A DNA stretch of 30,610 bases from Bacteroidota bacterium (GTDB lineage: Bacteria > Bacteroidota > Bacteroidia > Cytophagales > ES-bin-26), in NCBI GenBank assembly GCA_040385915.1, contig JAZKGK010000153.1, positions 12,466-43,075 of the forward strand. The letters run 5' to 3'. The translations under genes were made by a program, and so were the position numbers. This document shows positions 15,862-22,629 of the stretch, one piece after another; position 1 is the first letter of the stretch; each line of letters begins with the position of its first letter. The notes beneath the pieces are model-generated. The model saw only the letters and a program-made list of their open reading frames with translations. It was not told where the DNA came from and made no database searches.

Positions 15862-15903
15862 TAAAAAAGCCCTTTGTAAATGATTCATTTACAAAGGGCT
15901 TTT
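15862..15903 (-). terminator. Rho-independent terminator (bidirectional-capable) downstream of cvpA
   Basis: aagccctttgtaaatg / catttacaaagggctt forms a 16-bp stem with a 3-nt loop. It is flanked by AAAAA on the plus strand (U-tract for the minus-strand transcript) and TTT on the other side. Confidence 0.75.
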
Positions 15904-16497: not shown

Positions 16498-16549
16498 GTA
16501 GAGGTGCAGATGAGTAGCTAAAAGCCTATCTACTCATCTGCACCTCTAC
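16498..16549 (-). terminator. 20-bp perfect inverted repeat with 12-nt loop between ilvC and cvpA (candidate terminator or partial terminator)
   Basis: gtagaggtgcagatgagtag … ctactcatctgcacctctac, located 15 bp past the ilvC stop. The U-tract is weak, so function is uncertain. Confidence 0.45.
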
Positions 16550-16563
16550 ACATCTACTTATTG

Positions 16564-17607
16564 TTATTGTTTCGGTCTCAACTCGCGCACTTTGGCGCCA
16601 GTCTGCCACATTTCTGAATCGTGGATTTCCTGCAATTCGGCTTCCAACTTCACCCGGTAATCAGGCTGGCTGTTGGTAGCGATAGAACGAGCAGCTTCCT
16701 GACCGGTAGCTACTTTTTCGTACAGTTCTTCAAATACAGGCAAGGTAGCCTCGCGGAACTTGTGTCTCCAATCTAAGGCGCCACGTTGCGCAGTAGTAGA
16801 GCAGTTGGCGTACATCCAATCCATGCCGTTTTCAGATACCAGTCTGATCAAGCTTTCTGTCAATTCTTCTACGGTTTCGTTGAAAGCCTCGCTTGGCGAA
16901 TGGCCTTTTCTACGCAAAGTATCGTATTGCGCTTCCATTACACCAGCCAAAGCACCCATCAAGATACCCCGTTCGCCAGTCAAGTCGCTGTATACTTCTT
17001 TTTCAAAAGTAGTTTCAAACAAATAGCCAGAACCTACGCCAATACCCAGCGCCGTTACTGTGTCTAAAGCCTTGCCAGAAGCATCTTGGAAAATAGCAAA
17101 GCTGGAGTTCAATCCCTTGCCTTGCAAGAACAAGCGACGAAGGCTAGTTCCTGAACCTTTAGGAGCAACCAATACTACATCCACATCAGCGGGTGGAACG
17201 ATGCCGGTTTGGTCTTTATAAGTAATGCCGAAGCCGTGAGAGAAATAAAGCGTTTTGCCTTTGGTAAGGTATTTCTTTACGGTAGGCCACAGAGCAATTT
17301 GTGCTGCATCGGAAAGTAAAAAGCAAATGATCGTGCCTTTTTCTAACGCTTCTTCGATAGAAAGAAGTGTTTTTCCTTCTACAAAGCCATCAGCTTTAGC
17401 CTTATCCCAAGATTTGGAAGGTTGGCGTTGTCCTACAATCACATTAAAACCGTTGTCTTTCAGGTTTAGCGCTTGTCCAGGACCTTGCACCCCGTAGCCG
17501 ATAACGGCAATGACTTCATCTTTTAATGTTTGTCTCGCTTTTTCTAAGGGAAATTCTTCCCGCGTCACTACATTCTCTTCGACTCCGCCGAAATTAATTG
17601 TTGCCAT
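16564..17607 (-). CDS. ilvC: Ketol-acid reductoisomerase (class I, NADP+)
   Basis: 347 aa. Begins MATINFGG…, with the GxGxQG dinucleotide motif (VIGYGVQGPGQALNL) and KARI catalytic-domain conservation. Confidence 0.95.
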   Translation of the reverse strand: MATINFGGVEENVVTREEFPLEKARQTLKDEVIAVIGYGVQGPGQALNLKDNGFNVIVGQRQPSKSWDKAKADGFVEGKTLLSIEEALEKGTIICFLLSDAAQIALWPTVKKYLTKGKTLYFSHGFGITYKDQTGIVPPADVDVVLVAPKGSGTSLRRLFLQGKGLNSSFAIFQDASGKALDTVTALGIGVGSGYLFETTFEKEVYSDLTGERGILMGALAGVMEAQYDTLRRKGHSPSEAFNETVEELTESLIRLVSENGMDWMYANCSTTAQRGALDWRHKFREATLPVFEELYEKVATGQEAARSIATNSQPDYRVKLEAELQEIHDSEMWQTGAKVRELRPKQ

Positions 17608-17678
17608 GATAATAGTTAAACTGTTGGATTATAAAAAGTTGTATGATAAAATACTGAATCAGATGCAAAAGTAAAGAA

Positions 17679-17912
17679 TTATGCTTTGGTTACGGTAGTG
17701 ATGTCCAAAGTACGCATCATATTTTTAAACACTTGCTCGGCAATCAGCGGCTCCTCTTCGAAAGCAACGGTACAAACAGCCGTGGTTTCTGTCTCGCGCT
17801 GGTAGCTCAAACTTGTGACCCGCATACCCCTTTTGCGAATGGGCATTAAGATTCGGTCAATCATTTCGGGCGTATGGTGGCAGGCAATGTGCCAGGTATG
17901 TAATTCTTTCAT
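17679..17912 (-). CDS. ilvM: Acetolactate synthase small (regulatory) subunit, short IlvM-type, single ACT domain
   Basis: 77 aa. 'HTPEMIDRILMPIRKRGMRVTSLSY' parallels E. coli IlvM 'FNPETLERVLRVVRHRGFHVCSMNM'. Sits 3 bp downstream of the large-subunit gene. Confidence 0.7.
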   Translation of the reverse strand: MKELHTWHIACHHTPEMIDRILMPIRKRGMRVTSLSYQRETETTAVCTVAFEEEPLIAEQVFKNMMRTLDITTVTKA

Positions 17913-17915
17913 GGC

Positions 17916-19658
17916 TTATCTGGTAATCAGCTGCGTTTTTTGTTTGGCGTGTAATTCTTCGCCTTCGGGATAATAAATGGTATCGCTTAGGGTAGTTCCT
18001 GGTGCAATCATAGGCAATACGTTGTCTTCTTTCACCACCTTGGCATGAATCAGGAATGGCCCTTTGGCATTGCTTGCCAGGTGCAGCGCTTCTTTATATT
18101 CTTCTACGGTAGAAGCACAAACAGCATCAATACCGTATGCTTTAGCCAGCATCACAAAGTCCGGATTCATCAGATTCACTCCTGAGTAGTTACCAGCCCA
18201 GAATTGCTCCTGCCACTGGCGTACCATTCCCAGATAATTATTGTCCAGAATAAGAACCCGTATGGGATAATTTTCCTGCACGCAAGTCATCAACTCCTGG
18301 ATGTTCATCTGAATGGAACCATCGCCGGAAATGCACCACACCTGATTACCAGGAGCTGCCGCTTGAGCGCCCATGGCCGCAGGTAGGCCAAAGCCCATCG
18401 TACCCAAACCAGCCGAAGTAAGGAAGCGGTTAGGATTCATGCGGGTAACGTACTGTGCTGCCCACATCTGGTGCTGGCCTACATCAGTCGATACAATCGC
18501 ATCTTCGTCCATCACTTCGTTGAGTACATCCAGTGCCGTAATCATGTTGAAAACATCATGGTTGGCTTCTTTGAACGGGTACTTGGCGCGCTGCTGGTCT
18601 AAATGCTCTACCCACTGACGACGAACGCGCAGATTTTCGCGGGTACGGGTGTCTGGTATTGCTTGCAAAGCCCGTTTTACATCCGCGTGTAAAAATACGT
18701 TTGCCCGTACGTTTTTGCTGTTTTCGCTCTTGTCAATATCTATGTGAACAACTTTGGCATTTGGCGCAAACTTGTCGAGCTTCCCCGTAATACGATCATC
18801 AAAGCGCATCCCTACCGCAATCAGTAAATCTGCCTGCTGCACGGCATCATTGGCGTATTTGGTTCCGTGCATTCCCAACCAAGAGAAGTACAGCGGATCA
18901 TTGTGTTTCAGTACTCCAATCCCCAAAATGGTAGAAATGGTCGGAAGGTGTTCACGTTTGATAAAATCGCGGAACTCCTGGCAAGCATCAGAAAGTATAA
19001 TTCCGTGTCCGGCCAAAATCAAAGGCTTCTTGGCTTCCGATATCAGCTTAACCGCTTGGGCGATCTGCTCGTCATCGGTATTGAATAACCGCTCTCTTTG
19101 GGGAATGGTATAGTGTTGTTCCCAATCGGCATCTAACTCAATTGTAGCTACTTGTACATCGCGGGGAATATCTACCAATACCGGACCAGGTCTGCCACTA
19201 ATGGCTGTCAGGTAAGCATCCTGCAAAATGCCAGGTACTTCGCTCAGGTGACGCGCGATATAGGTACGCTTGGTAATAGGCATGCAAATACCCGTGATGT
19301 CCGTTTCCTGAAAAGCATCGGAGCCAATCAAAGGGCCGGCTACCTGCCCGGTAATGGCAATCATCGGAATAGAGTCGGCAAAGGCATCGGCAATACCCGT
19401 AACCATATTAGTAGCCCCAGGGCCAGAAGTAGACAGGCAAAAGCCTGGCTTACCTTTTACCCGCGCATAACCATTGGCGGCTAGTGCTCCGCCCTGTTCG
19501 TGGCGTACCAGAATGTTTTTTACTTTGCTGAAGGCGAGTGCATCATAAATGGGTAGGATGGCACCACCAGGATAAGCGAATAGATTATCCGCTCCTAAAC
19601 ATTCCAGCAACTTAACGATGTAATCGGCGCCTCTGAGTTTGATCTTGTCGTTTTCCAT
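17916..19658 (-). CDS. ilvB: Acetolactate synthase large (catalytic) subunit, biosynthetic type (ThDP/FAD)
   Basis: 580 aa. N-terminal ThDP-pyrimidine domain (GYARVKGKPGFCLSTSGPGATNMVTGIADA) and ThDP-binding motif (ISGDGSIQMNIQEL…). Confidence 0.95.
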   Translation of the reverse strand: MENDKIKLRGADYIVKLLECLGADNLFAYPGGAILPIYDALAFSKVKNILVRHEQGGALAANGYARVKGKPGFCLSTSGPGATNMVTGIADAFADSIPMIAITGQVAGPLIGSDAFQETDITGICMPITKRTYIARHLSEVPGILQDAYLTAISGRPGPVLVDIPRDVQVATIELDADWEQHYTIPQRERLFNTDDEQIAQAVKLISEAKKPLILAGHGIILSDACQEFRDFIKREHLPTISTILGIGVLKHNDPLYFSWLGMHGTKYANDAVQQADLLIAVGMRFDDRITGKLDKFAPNAKVVHIDIDKSENSKNVRANVFLHADVKRALQAIPDTRTRENLRVRRQWVEHLDQQRAKYPFKEANHDVFNMITALDVLNEVMDEDAIVSTDVGQHQMWAAQYVTRMNPNRFLTSAGLGTMGFGLPAAMGAQAAAPGNQVWCISGDGSIQMNIQELMTCVQENYPIRVLILDNNYLGMVRQWQEQFWAGNYSGVNLMNPDFVMLAKAYGIDAVCASTVEEYKEALHLASNAKGPFLIHAKVVKEDNVLPMIAPGTTLSDTIYYPEGEELHAKQKTQLITR

Positions 19659-19731
19659 TGTTTCTCGGTTGAATGATCTTGCGTATCTAACTGATTGACA
19701 CGTATGTAAGCGAATAATCGATGGTTTTTAT

Positions 19732-21429
19732 TTATTCGTCCGTGACACAACCTTCCGAGGCCGATGAAACGGATCTGATATATTTCTTCAGAATACCAAT
19801 CGTAGCTTTTAGCGGAGGAGCCACCCATTCCGAACGACGATGCGCTAGTTCTGCATCGCTCACCGCTACGTCTATCGTATTATTTACGGCATCTACTGTA
19901 ATGATATCACCATCGCGAACCAGCGCAATGTTTCCGCCATCCTGGGCTTCCGGCGCGATGTGTCCTACCACAAAACCGTGCGTACCACCAGAAAAACGGC
20001 CATCCGTAATCAGGGCTACGGCATTACCCAAACCTGCGCCAATCAAAGCGGAAGTAGGTTTAAGCATTTCGGGCATTCCGGGGCCACCTTTTGGGCCTAC
20101 GTAGCGAATCACGACTACTTCGCCTGGTTTCACTCCACCAGCCTCAATAATTTCCAGCACTTCCGTTTCCGAATCCGCCACGCGGGCAGGTCCGGTAAAT
20201 TTCTCTCCCTCTTTACCCGTAATCTTGGCTACAGATCCTTCGGTGGCGAGGTTGCCGTACAAAATCTGTATATGGCCGGTTGGTTTAATCGGCTTATTCA
20301 AAGGATAGATCACTTGTTGTCCTTCTAAAAGATCAGGAAAGGCTTCCAGGTTTTCGCTGAGGGTTTTTCCGGTGACAGTCAGGCAATGACCGTGCAGGAA
20401 ACCCTCGCGTAGCAATAGCTTCAAGACGGCTGCCGTACCACCCACCTTAAACAAATCTTCCATCAGGTATTTGCCACTTGGCTTCAAATCGGCCAGGAAA
20501 GGCGTTTTATCGCTGATGCGTTGGAAATCGGCTAATGTAAATGAAATGCCAACGGCTTTCGCCATCGCTATCAGGTGGAGTACTGCATTGGTAGAGCCAC
20601 CCAGGGCAATCGTTAATGTGAAAGCATTTTCAAACGCTTCGAAAGTCATAATGTCTTTCGGGCAAATGTTATTTTCTAATAAATAACGAACCGCTTTCCC
20701 TGCTTGCCGACATTCCGCTTTTTTCTCTGGACTAGTCGCCGGAAAAGAGGAGCTATTAGGTAAACTCATGCCCAATGCTTCAATGGCCGCAGCCATCGTA
20801 TTGGCCGTATACATACCGCCACAAGCACCAGCGCCTGGGCAGGCATTTTTGATAACGCCTTTGTAATCTTCCTCACTAATAGTACCTGCTATCTTTTGCC
20901 CTAAAGCTTCGAAAGCGGAGACAACATTAAGGTTTTCGTTTTTATATACCCCAGGCCGAATAGTCCCTCCATATACCAGCACTGCTGGGCGGTTGAGTCT
21001 TCCGAGGGCGATCATCGCACCGGGCATGTTTTTATCGCAACCAACAATGGGCACGATGGCATCGTACCATTGGGCACTGGCTACCGTTTCGATAGAGTCG
21101 GCAATAATGTCGCGAGAAGGCAAGGAAAAAGACATCCCGGTGGTTCCCATCGACATCCCGTCGCTTACCCCAATGGTATGAAAAATCAGCCCCAGCATTT
21201 CAGATTCCTGGATTCCCAATTTAATTTGAGCTGCCAAGGCATTGAGGTGCATATTGCAAGGATTGCCTTCCCAGCCGGTGCTGGCAATACCCACTTGCGC
21301 TTTTTTGAAGTCTTCATCCTTTAACCCAATGGCATATAGCATGGCTTGGGCAGCAGGTTGCGTAGGGTCTTGCGTGATGCGTCGACTATAGCTATTGATG
21401 GCTTTTTCTTCGAGAGTAGTCTTACTCAT
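19732..21429 (-). CDS. ilvD: Dihydroxy-acid dehydratase
   Basis: 565 aa. ILVD/EDD signature ([15 protein letters not shown]…) and Fe-S ligands. Confidence 0.95.
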
Positions 21430-21475
21430 GGGATAATTGAAACGGTTAAAAATGGCTATTTAATGACTAGCCTGA

Positions 21476-21513
21476 ATACCAAAAGAGCCTTTCTCTTAGG
21501 GAGACAGGCTCTT
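21476..21513 (-). terminator. Attenuator terminator hairpin in the ilv leader (minus strand: AAGAGCCUgucucccuaagagaaAGGCUCUUUUGG)
   Basis: 8-bp GC-rich stem, extendable through an inner ucuc/gaga pairing, followed by a UUUU tract. Located 47 nt upstream of the ilvD ATG and 28 nt downstream of the leader ORF stop. Confidence 0.55.
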
Positions 21514-21541
21514 AATAAATTATGGTGAAGCCTTCCCCCTG

Positions 21542-21607
21542 TCAGGTAATCAGGAAAATGACCACAATGAGCAAAAGCTCAAAACTATGGAAAGGCGTAA
21601 ACTTCAT
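21542..21607 (-). CDS. Candidate ilv leader peptide (21 aa: MKFTPFHSFELLLIVVIFLIT)
   Basis: Small ORF on the ilv strand. Its run LLLIVVIFLI is 9 of 10 Leu/Ile/Val codons. It is followed by the terminator hairpin. An upstream AGGCU (in GGAAGGCUUC) can pair with the terminator's left arm AGCCU, a possible antiterminator alternative. Confidence 0.5.
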   Translation of the reverse strand: MKFTPFHSFELLLIVVIFLIT

Positions 21608-21960
21608 TAGTTAGGTATTTGTGCAAAGATTCGGCATATTTTTCAGAATAGCAATATAAATATTGAAAATTAATGATTGTGTAAAATTAAAAAGATGTCA
21701 TTGGCACTATTGTCCAATCTTTTCGTTTAAAATTTAAAAATTTATTCACACATATTTGTGAAAATTAAACTTTCCAGATCTTATATTAGCTGCTTGTCTT
21801 ACTTGCTTTTTCTCTGCTGCTCATCCATTCCAGCCCTATCATCCCCTGGTTTTGCTATTTAATTTAGCTTGAATCTTACCGACTATCAAAAGTTGAATTT
21901 TCACTCCTTGTAATCTACCCCAAAATTGCTAGTATTGAACATTGTTTCAAAACAAGATCC

Positions 21961-22629
21961 ATGAAAGAATTACTCGATTGGGCATTTATTTCCATTAATT
22001 TTCCGCTCACCCTCCTATTACTGGTTATTCTGTTGTACTGGCTTACCGTAATTGTCGGCCTGATCGATTTCAGCTTTCTTCATTTCGACATAGATGCGGA
22101 CATTCATATAGATGGTCATGCGCATGTGCATCTGGAGAAAAACATCCATGTAGATGTAAAAGCGAAACAAAGTCTCTTCACTTCTCTGCTTAATTTTTTC
22201 AATTTGGGAAAAGTGCCTTTCATGATTTTCCTTAGCTTCATGGTTTTATTTATGTGGAGCGGTAGTATTCTAGGGAATTATTACCTCCATAATCAATCGG
22301 TCGGTTTTGCCCTGTTGCTGCTCATTCCCAACTTTATTAGCAGCCTGTTTCTGACCAAGTTTCTTACGTTTCCCCTCATTCACGTTTTTTCTGATGGCAA
22401 AAATGAATTTGAAGCCAATAGTGATTTGATTGGCAAGCCTTGTACACTCCTGCTCTCGGCCACGGAACAGAAAGTGGGTCAGGCAGAAGTGCTATCCGCT
22501 ACGGGTGCGCCGCTGTTACTGACAGTGAAAACCACCACCGGACACCAACTCAAACGAGGCGAAAGAGGGCTGGTGATTGATTATGACCCAGTCACGCACA
22601 CCTACTTAATAGAACCATTTGACCAATAA
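21961..22629 (+). CDS. NfeD/YqiJ-like membrane protein (N-terminal TM helices plus C-terminal NfeD-type OB-fold)
   Basis: 222 aa with three or four hydrophobic segments. The C-terminus 'GKPCTLLLSATEQKVGQAEVLSATGAPLLLTVKTTTGHQLKRGERGLVIDYDP' has the NfeD short-form beta-barrel pattern. It is immediately upstream of a flotillin gene, as in yqiJ-yqiK and nfeD-floT pairs. A His-rich stretch (HIDGHAHVHLEKNIHVD) is present. Confidence 0.65.
   Translation: MKELLDWAFISINFPLTLLLLVILLYWLTVIVGLIDFSFLHFDIDADIHIDGHAHVHLEKNIHVDVKAKQSLFTSLLNFFNLGKVPFMIFLSFMVLFMWSGSILGNYYLHNQSVGFALLLLIPNFISSLFLTKFLTFPLIHVFSDGKNEFEANSDLIGKPCTLLLSATEQKVGQAEVLSATGAPLLLTVKTTTGHQLKRGERGLVIDYDPVTHTYLIEPFDQ

Follow-up and report, generated by a model that had tools for sequence, protein, structure and literature searches.

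The window analyzed here, a 30,610-nucleotide stretch of contig JAZKGK010000153.1, comes from an NCBI metagenome-assembled genome (MAG) named 'Bacteroidota bacterium'. Its minus strand carries the branched-chain amino acid operon ilvD-ilvB-small subunit-ilvC, with MES2732430.1 as its IlvD. Upstream of ilvD, a short open reading frame (ORF) dominated by Leu, Ile and Val (ILV) codons is followed by a hairpin and a U tract. We consider it likely that these elements form a ribosome-mediated leader-peptide transcription attenuator, tying expression of ilvD-ilvB-small subunit-ilvC to the supply of charged Leu-, Ile- and Val-tRNA. The operon and the leader ORF comprise the following features.

16564..21429, minus strand: operon ilvD-ilvB-small subunit-ilvC, candidate regulated unit (NCBIfam, and gene order as in relatives)
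21429-19732, minus strand: ilvD (NCBIfam)
19658-17916, minus strand: ilvB (NCBIfam)
17912-17679, minus strand: putative small subunit, 77 amino acids (aa) (Pfam ACT_5, E = 3e-4, below cut-off)
17607-16564, minus strand: ilvC (NCBIfam)
21542..21607, minus strand: leader peptide ORF, MKFTPFHSFELLLIVVIFLIT and TGA stop (ORF list, checked sequence and relatives' peptides)
21548..21577, minus strand: regulatory codon run LLLIVVIFLI, CUU UUG CUC AUU GUG GUC AUU UUC CUG AUU (sequence and ribosome-mask folding)

A preliminary description of this DNA, made from its letters, had named the operon ilvD-ilvB-ilvM-ilvC. NCBIfam matches above the curated cut-offs bore out ilvD, ilvB and ilvC, but the name ilvM was less secure, as the 77-aa ORF between ilvB and ilvC gave only a sub-threshold ACT-domain match. 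This match is consistent with a short acetolactate-synthase small subunit.

The leader ORF has 21 codons, running from an ATG at 21607 to a TGA at 21544-21542, and its stop codon lies 112 nucleotides (nt) before the ilvD ATG at 21429. Nine of the ten codons at positions 11-20 (21577-21548) specify Leu, Ile or Val, and the four Leu codons in this run are all distinct (CUU, UUG, CUC and CUG). The coordinates, translation and codon composition agree with the earlier description, which had placed the ORF about 110 nt before ilvD on the ilv strand. Among 301 ATG-initiated ORFs of 8-45 codons in the six frames of the window, it is the only one in which at least 7 of 8, or 9 of 10, consecutive codons are ILV codons. 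The ILV share over all six frames is 0.21, corresponding to a probability of 6e-6 per position for at least 9 of 10.

Close relatives of the locus were collected by an IlvD search, which gave just five clusters at 80-85% identity (contigs L081-L088), making six sequences with the window. All five contigs have the same ilv gene order and encode a leader peptide at the same position (MKFTPSHNFELLLIVVVILGT, MKFTPSHTFELLLIVVIVLGT, MKFTPHHSFELLLVVIIRIT, MTFTPHHSFVLLLAVILSIA and MRYTPFYSFEILLIVVNT). The ILV-rich ORF, whose absence from related genomes would have spoken against an attenuator, is kept in each of them.

Alignment of the six sequences (A1) also revealed a near-invariant TTG...ATGCCRAATMTTTG block whose end lies about 17 nt upstream of the leader ATG. 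The Bacteroidota promoter consensus is TTTG at -33 and TAnnTTTG at -7, and two putative elements can be placed within the block.

21652..21655, minus strand: putative Bacteroidota-type -33 element ATTG (TTG invariant in the six relatives; 20 nt upstream of the -7 box)
21624..21631, minus strand: putative -7 element AATCTTTG (ATGCCRAATMTTTG conserved in all six relatives)

The block is therefore a putative promoter, and from the position of the -7 element transcripts would begin some 10-15 nt upstream of the leader ATG. A sigma-70 promoter scan returned counts at background; its consensus is unsuitable for Bacteroidota promoters. In the relative L081 (2795-2890), the gene caller's 31-aa product MPNICTNTFTMKFTPSHNFELLLIVVVILGT starts at an upstream in-frame ATG inside the putative -7 box, and is probably a mis-extended leader peptide. 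The equivalent frame in the window is closed by a TAA.

To cover the phylum, a genome scan with IlvD gave 80 Bacteroidota loci (taxonomy according to GTDB) at 66-71% identity, of which 63 entered an ORF count. Passing over ilvE where this gene lay upstream, we counted ATG-initiated ORFs of 8-45 codons no more than 400 nt away from the first ilv gene. An ORF with at least 7 of 8 ILV codons preceded the first ilv gene in 24 of the 63 loci, compared with 1 of 63 on the reverse complement. With 8 of 8 ILV codons the counts were 10 and 0, and with at least 6 of 8 they were 29 loci against about 6 expected from shuffles. Conservation of the ILV-rich ORF thus extends beyond the close relatives, as an enrichment upstream of ilv operons across Bacteroidota.

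A run such as LLLIVVIFLI would also make a plausible membrane segment, and AT-rich intergenic DNA often contains small ORFs for hydrophobic peptides. The ORF could on these grounds encode a small hydrophobic membrane peptide, or go untranslated, with the hairpin a plain terminator or insulator that has no part in ILV sensing. However, in the residues pooled over 37 leaders, Ile (25%), Val (16%) and Leu (10%) account for 51% of all residues and 79% of the hydrophobic ones, while Phe, Ala, Met, Trp and Gly are rare, so that the composition suggests codon sensing more than an ordinary membrane helix. The peptide sequence itself is kept only in close relatives, while the ILV bias and the position before ilv genes persist. 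Because the upstream neighbor (21961-22629) is divergent from the ilv operon, there is no same-strand gene for the leader hairpin to terminate. This explanation would also leave the antiterminator complementarity described below unaccounted for, and we regard it as very unlikely.

The RNA between the leader ORF and ilvD, together with part of the ORF itself, is predicted to fold into alternative helices, numbered here as regions 1 to 4.

21589..21596, minus strand: region 1 (GCCUUUCC, codons 4-7), pairing with region 2 in untranslated RNA; putative anti-antiterminator or pause hairpin (minimum free energy (MFE) fold and RNAalifold consensus)
21551..21558, minus strand: region 1' (UUUUCCUG, within the ILV run), weaker alternative partner of region 2, -6.3 kcal/mol (window only)
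21528..21540, minus strand: region 2 (AGGGGGAAGGCUU), antiterminator 5' arm, starting 2 nt past the stop codon (folding and duplex test)
21498..21512, minus strand: region 3 (AGAGCCUGUCUCCCU), common to the antiterminator (with region 2) and the terminator (with region 4) (folding and duplex energy)
21483..21513, minus strand: terminator hairpin (regions 3:4), AAGAGCCUGUCUC-CCUAA-GAGAAAGGCUCUU (-16.6 kcal/mol; paired in relatives)
21475..21484, minus strand: U tract UUUUGGUAUU (CUCUUUUG invariant in 5/6 relatives; the sixth has UUUUUUA)
21454..21472, minus strand, to 21446 with the following AUUUUUAA: small second hairpin GGCUA-N9-UAGCC in the ilvD 5' untranslated region (predicted fold)

The terminator stem comprises 13 positions with one G.A mismatch, has an energy of -16.6 kcal/mol and begins 28 nt past the leader stop codon, so that the GC-rich stem and U tract noted earlier at this distance are recovered as the hairpin at 21513-21483 followed by UUUUGGUAUU. 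The 196-nt leader as a whole folds better than its dinucleotide shuffles (z = -3.0). In a structure-blind MAFFT alignment of the six sequences, the terminator is 97% paired and shows one compensatory change from G-C to A-U. Across the phylum, 24 of the 29 ILV leaders have a hairpin of -10 to -25 kcal/mol with a U tract, starting 20-36 nt past the leader stop codon (29 nt for the window in this pipeline). In 22 Bacteroidota leaders the terminator stem is 96% paired with 29 extra pair types, a value reached by none of 1000 shuffles.

Leader translation might nevertheless control the operon without intrinsic termination, through Rho-dependent termination on the leader when it is untranslated, mRNA stability, or ilvD translation governed by downstream hairpins. 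The U tract is short (UUUUGG), the stem is mismatched, and a simple strict terminator scanner did not call the leader hairpin, because of that mismatch. The second hairpin (21472-21454), moreover, lies between the terminator and ilvD. It has counterparts at the same place in L086 (GGCCGGC/GCCGGCC) and L087 (GGCCGAC/GUCGGCC), with changes that look compensatory, and just 57% of its cells are paired in the six-sequence MAFFT alignment; CAGGCU, the 5' arm of this hairpin, shows complementarity to region 3 as well. The hairpin might serve as a back-up terminator, stabilize the mRNA or act in translation control. On the other side, the stem and UUUU are nearly invariant in the relatives, strong hairpins followed by 5-8 U at the same position across the phylum are the hallmark of intrinsic terminators, and the ilvD start, 51 nt past the U tract, lies outside all of the alternative helices. 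Control without intrinsic termination appears unlikely on this evidence. Intrinsic termination at the leader hairpin is further favored by a canonical intrinsic terminator elsewhere on the same contig (AAAAGCCCUUUGUAAAUGAAUCAUUUACAAAGGGCUUUUUU, ~15903-15862), which follows the CvpA-like gene next beyond ilvC.

Folding of the free RNA gave the 1:2 and 3:4 pairings as the MFE structure, and RNAalifold applied to the six sequences independently gave the same consensus. When region 4 was left out, regions 2 and 3 formed a 13-bp helix with one bulged G, at -17.5 kcal/mol compared with -16.6 kcal/mol for the terminator. The antiterminator is thus as stable as the terminator in the folding model, and the two are mutually exclusive. 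The AGGCU upstream of the terminator, which the preliminary description had paired with the terminator's left arm, turned out to be part of this longer pairing (21540-21528 with 21512-21498). The energy of the 2:3 duplex was -20.4 kcal/mol, against -9.3 ± 2.9 kcal/mol for shuffled sequences.

The 2:3 helix is 82.7% paired in the six sequences (MAFFT alignment), with four pairs changed on both sides. Its covariation score was matched by 19 of 500 shuffles and exceeded that of every slid register. The paired segments are GGGGGAAGGCU:AGCCUGUCUCCC in the window, GGGGAAAGGCU:AGCCUUUCUCC in L081, GUGGGGAGGGGC:GCCUUUUCCCAC in L086 and CUGGGAAGGGU:GCCUUUCUCAG in L088, and the helix has an energy of -16 to -22 kcal/mol in five of the six sequences. 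For the 1:2 pairing, 78.7% of cells are paired in the six relatives.

At 21503 the window carries a minus-strand G within CCUGUCUC, whereas its relatives carry CCUUUCUC. The U-to-G change is uncompensated in both partners of region 3, giving the G.A mismatch of the terminator and the bulge of the antiterminator, and may shift the set-point of the attenuator in this genome.

The antiterminator was also examined beyond the close relatives. A fixed-column count in a 22-sequence model alignment found 60% of antiterminator positions paired compared with 57% in shuffles. Since the registers differ between lineages, this count was replaced by a per-locus duplex test with swapped-partner controls. In 21 leaders, the stop-codon segment was predicted to pair with its own terminator 5' arm and loop at a mean energy of -14.9 kcal/mol, compared with -10.4 kcal/mol for segments swapped between loci (Wilcoxon p = 1.5e-4). 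Compared with shuffles, the per-locus antiterminator duplexes had a mean z of -3.5, with z below -2 in 16 of the 21. The predicted antiterminator pairing is lineage-specific.

The effect of a translating ribosome was modeled by masking, codon by codon, everything between the mRNA 5' end and a point 12 nt past the A-site codon, and folding the remainder at equilibrium; this is not a kinetic simulation. For the window leader, the antiterminator was the MFE structure only with the A site at codons 14-18 (IVVIF). With the A site at codons 19-21 or at the stop codon, region 2 was covered and the terminator was the MFE structure. With the A site at codons 1-13, upstream sequence including UUUUCCUG held region 2, and the terminator formed. 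A terminating ribosome would mask region 2 because this region starts 2 nt after the stop codon, a geometry that fits ribosome-mediated attenuation. Region 2 starts 0-2 nt past the stop codon in all six close sequences, and the antiterminator pairing segment starts between -9 and +6 nt from the stop codon in the 21 leaders of the duplex test.

Terminator/antiterminator switches are also used by T-boxes, riboswitches and TRAP- or PyrR-type proteins, and a binding site might in principle be provided by region 2, which is purine-rich, and by the CCUUUCUC motif that recurs among the leaders. The hairpin switch might accordingly be real and set by an RNA-binding protein, uncharged tRNA or a metabolite, with the ILV-rich ORF incidental. 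However, no Rfam 15 family matched the window or 20 related loci at the gathering score, Leu_leader, Thr_leader, His_leader, Trp_leader and Bacteroid-trp included. At E ≤ 10 the window gave only terminator-driven chance matches (AbsR25 and similar) and no riboswitch, and the T-box RF00230 (Stem I/specifier and antiterminator sequence) was without a match in the window at this threshold. The ILV enrichment is strand-specific (24/63 against 1/63) and recurs in peptides of quite different sequence. The constant abutment of region 2 on the stop codon makes sense only if a ribosome reads the ORF. A switch set by something other than the ribosome is in our view quite improbable.

The preferred reading, a leader-peptide attenuator as first proposed for this DNA, is supported by the antiterminator, by the conservation and enrichment of the ORF and by the geometry of region 2. 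From the sequence features, alternative pairings with their energies, conservation and covariation presented above, we infer a promoter, translation of the ORF, its coupling to transcription, termination at the U tract and a response to amino acids. Transcription would begin some 10-15 nt upstream of the leader ATG, with a ribosome translating the 21-codon leader close behind RNA polymerase. With plentiful amino acids, the ribosome would reach the UGA and cover region 2 (21540-21528), leaving region 3 free for region 4; the hairpin and U tract (21513-21475) would form, and transcription would stop before ilvD. With one of the amino acids scarce, the ribosome would stall in LLLIVVIFLI (modeled best at codons 14-18), with region 2 open and regions 1 and 1' masked. 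Region 2 would then pair with region 3 over 13 bp once the latter is made, blocking the terminator and letting the polymerase enter ilvD. If the leader were not translated at all, region 1 (21596-21589) would pair with region 2 and the terminator would form.

Several points weigh against this mechanism. With UUUU followed directly by GG, the U tract is short, and the stem in the window has a G.A mismatch that is absent in the relatives. The covariation statistics are modest, since there are no more than six distinct close sequences, and one of the six, L087, has a weak antiterminator (z = -0.9) as well as the least ILV-rich peptide. The equilibrium switch is narrow in the relatives, being confined to codon 17 in L081 and codons 16-17 in L085, and is absent in L087 and L088; the model therefore has to rest on the kinetics of folding during transcription. 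At equilibrium, a nascent transcript that has not yet reached region 4 and carries no ribosome already prefers the 2:3 pairing, so that termination by default requires 1:2 to have formed beforehand. In contrast to trpL, region 1 precedes the regulatory codons, and the 1:2 pairing shows no double changes. A literature search for experimental work on ILV attenuation in Bacteroidota returned predictions only. To our knowledge, transcription-translation coupling has not been demonstrated in Bacteroidota.

By analogy with known systems, the candidate element has every sequence-level hallmark of an attenuator of the ilvL/ivbL/leuL/trpL type: an ORF of end-product codons, an intrinsic terminator, a mutually exclusive antiterminator and, in the equilibrium model, the stop-codon geometry. 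The E. coli ilvL (ilvGMEDA) and ivbL (ilvBN) leaders are multivalent branched-chain attenuators. Like them, the window has a short Leu/Ile/Val-rich leader ORF before common-pathway genes, with its stop codon near region 2, and four predicted pairing regions (2:3, 3:4 and, less surely, 1:2), with 3:4 as an intrinsic terminator ahead of the first gene. It differs from them in lacking detectable sequence or covariance-model similarity (Rfam leaders, E ≤ 10), in its shorter peptide (21 aa compared with 32 aa in E. coli), and in the position of region 1 upstream of the regulatory codons. The putative promoter of Bacteroidota type, the leader start without a Shine-Dalgarno sequence and the gene order ilvD-ilvB-small subunit-ilvC are further differences.

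In the Bacteroidetes/Chlorobi, candidate attenuators were reportedly put forward by Vitreschak et al. in 2004. The Bacteroid-trp motif is read as a leader peptide containing Trp codons, together with a terminator. Like the element proposed for the window, it is a leader that acts in cis on an operon for amino-acid biosynthesis in Bacteroidetes; unlike that element, it serves another amino acid and operon, and cmscan gave no match of the motif to the window. The motif, RF01692, was described by Weinberg et al. (2010; PMC2864571). For Flavobacterium psychrophilum, an ilvE leader-peptide attenuation element has been predicted (Guérin et al. 2021, PMC9723704, supplementary D9, Table S7). It shares with the window the phylum, the pathway and an ILV-rich small ORF (MRKFNIIPSIIIAIVIITTAKGML there) in a long structured 5' region. 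However, its first gene is ilvE rather than ilvD, and its peptide is Ile/Val-dominated without a Leu run. The likeness is one of architecture; sequence similarity is not demonstrable, as the scores of the covariance model described below are terminator-driven, and the F. psychrophilum element is itself a prediction. The Flavobacterium loci of our phylum set have peptides (MQISIIITSVFVVNVIHTSAAGMV and MMQISIIIISVVVVNVIHTSASGML) near-identical in type to that of F. psychrophilum, and in one of them (L049) the terminator lies 23 nt past the stop codon. The ilvL/ivbL-type architecture proposed at the outset is thus supported, but the view that such elements are much less documented in Cytophagia-like Bacteroidota needs correction as regards novelty, as leader-peptide attenuators for ILV, Trp, Phe and His had been predicted in the phylum before (PMC9723704, PMC2864571). 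The element belongs to a kind already known there by prediction, and the window provides a new instance, solid but ordinary.

A covariance model built from the six close leaders (R1) gave full-length matches that placed its first position on the ATG of an ILV-rich ORF in at least nine ilv loci inspected. R1 also gave 'full-length' matches of 20-34 bits in 100 unrelated loci that share terminator sequence and have no ILV ORF. The R1 matches were therefore rejected as proof of phylum-wide homology, their scores being driven by the terminator, and we claim only a shared architecture. A metagenome search with the pattern AAAARAGCCT-N-AGGCTYT-N-GGYGTRWA proved too loose and returned at least 120 matches; those listed were ordinary terminators, and none of them had an ILV-rich ORF in the expected frame adjoining the match. 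On this comparison the predicted ilv leaders across the phylum share an architecture, and common descent is not proven.

It is possible, although we lean somewhat against it, that the window element represents a single ancient family of ilv-leader RNAs in Flavobacteriia, Cytophagia, Saprospiria and Chitinophagia, absent from Rfam, with a core formed by a CCUUUCUC-like region 3 and purine-rich regions 2 and 4. Evolution of this core would have been slowed because one strand must pair with two partners. If such a family exists, tight transcription-translation coupling would be ancestral, and obligatory in a phylum that initiates translation without Shine-Dalgarno pairing.

Other arrangements were seen among the phylum loci. 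Upstream of ilvE in Chitinophagaceae and other Bacteroidota MAGs (L032, L039, L054, L061, L077 and L079), the leaders end in ...IIIVVVIII...(N/Q)GGG(A/W/V). In these six, the G-rich Gly codons appear as the antiterminator arm pairing with the terminator arm CCCGCCUCC, so that region 2 would lie inside the ORF rather than past the stop codon.

Five Mucilaginibacter loci (L008, L048, L060, L074 and L046) have no ILV leader and share instead, 150-260 nt before ilvD, a block of strongly conserved DNA. The block contains the palindrome TATGCATGCATA and ATACCGAATACC-N-AACTTTGGTAT, and an apparent small ORF, MHKxxTEYRFxLWY, is probably its by-product. The block resembles an operator for a transcription factor, or a promoter, that takes the place of attenuation in the genus. 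One of these MAG contigs (L008) also carries, at 61-137 and about 1.7 kb before ilvD, a domain of a group II intron (Rfam RF00029, 48.5 bits).

Two further repeats were noted. In the window, directly past the ilvC stop codon, there is a perfect 20-bp inverted repeat, GTAGAGGTGCAGATGAGTAG...CTACTCATCTGCACCTCTAC (~16500-16555, minus strand), with a weak T tract. Its arms are far longer than a usual terminator stem, in contrast to the canonical A-tract/stem/U-tract terminator at ~15862-15903. The metagenome contig L186, which is not an ilv locus, has two near-identical units of about 120 nt (304-424 and 492-612), 188 nt apart. Each ends in a terminator-like hairpin, AAAAAAGCCUGUCCGC...GCGGAAAGGCUUUUU, making this a tandemly repeated terminator-bearing element.

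For annotation, the leader accounts for 530 bp of seemingly 'empty' intergenic DNA and draws attention to a small ORF that is overlooked or wrongly extended by gene callers. As far as we found, leader attenuators responding to ILV have only been predicted in Bacteroidota, without an Rfam family, whereas the class is textbook knowledge in Proteobacteria. The window contributes a candidate that can be dissected cleanly and that comes with a small set of comparative data. A putative promoter, a candidate 21-codon sensor and three alternative helices, all with exact coordinates, together with more than 20 analogous leaders, are enough to curate a Bacteroidota ilv-leader family. The same data suffice to design a reporter test of transcription-translation coupling in Bacteroidota.

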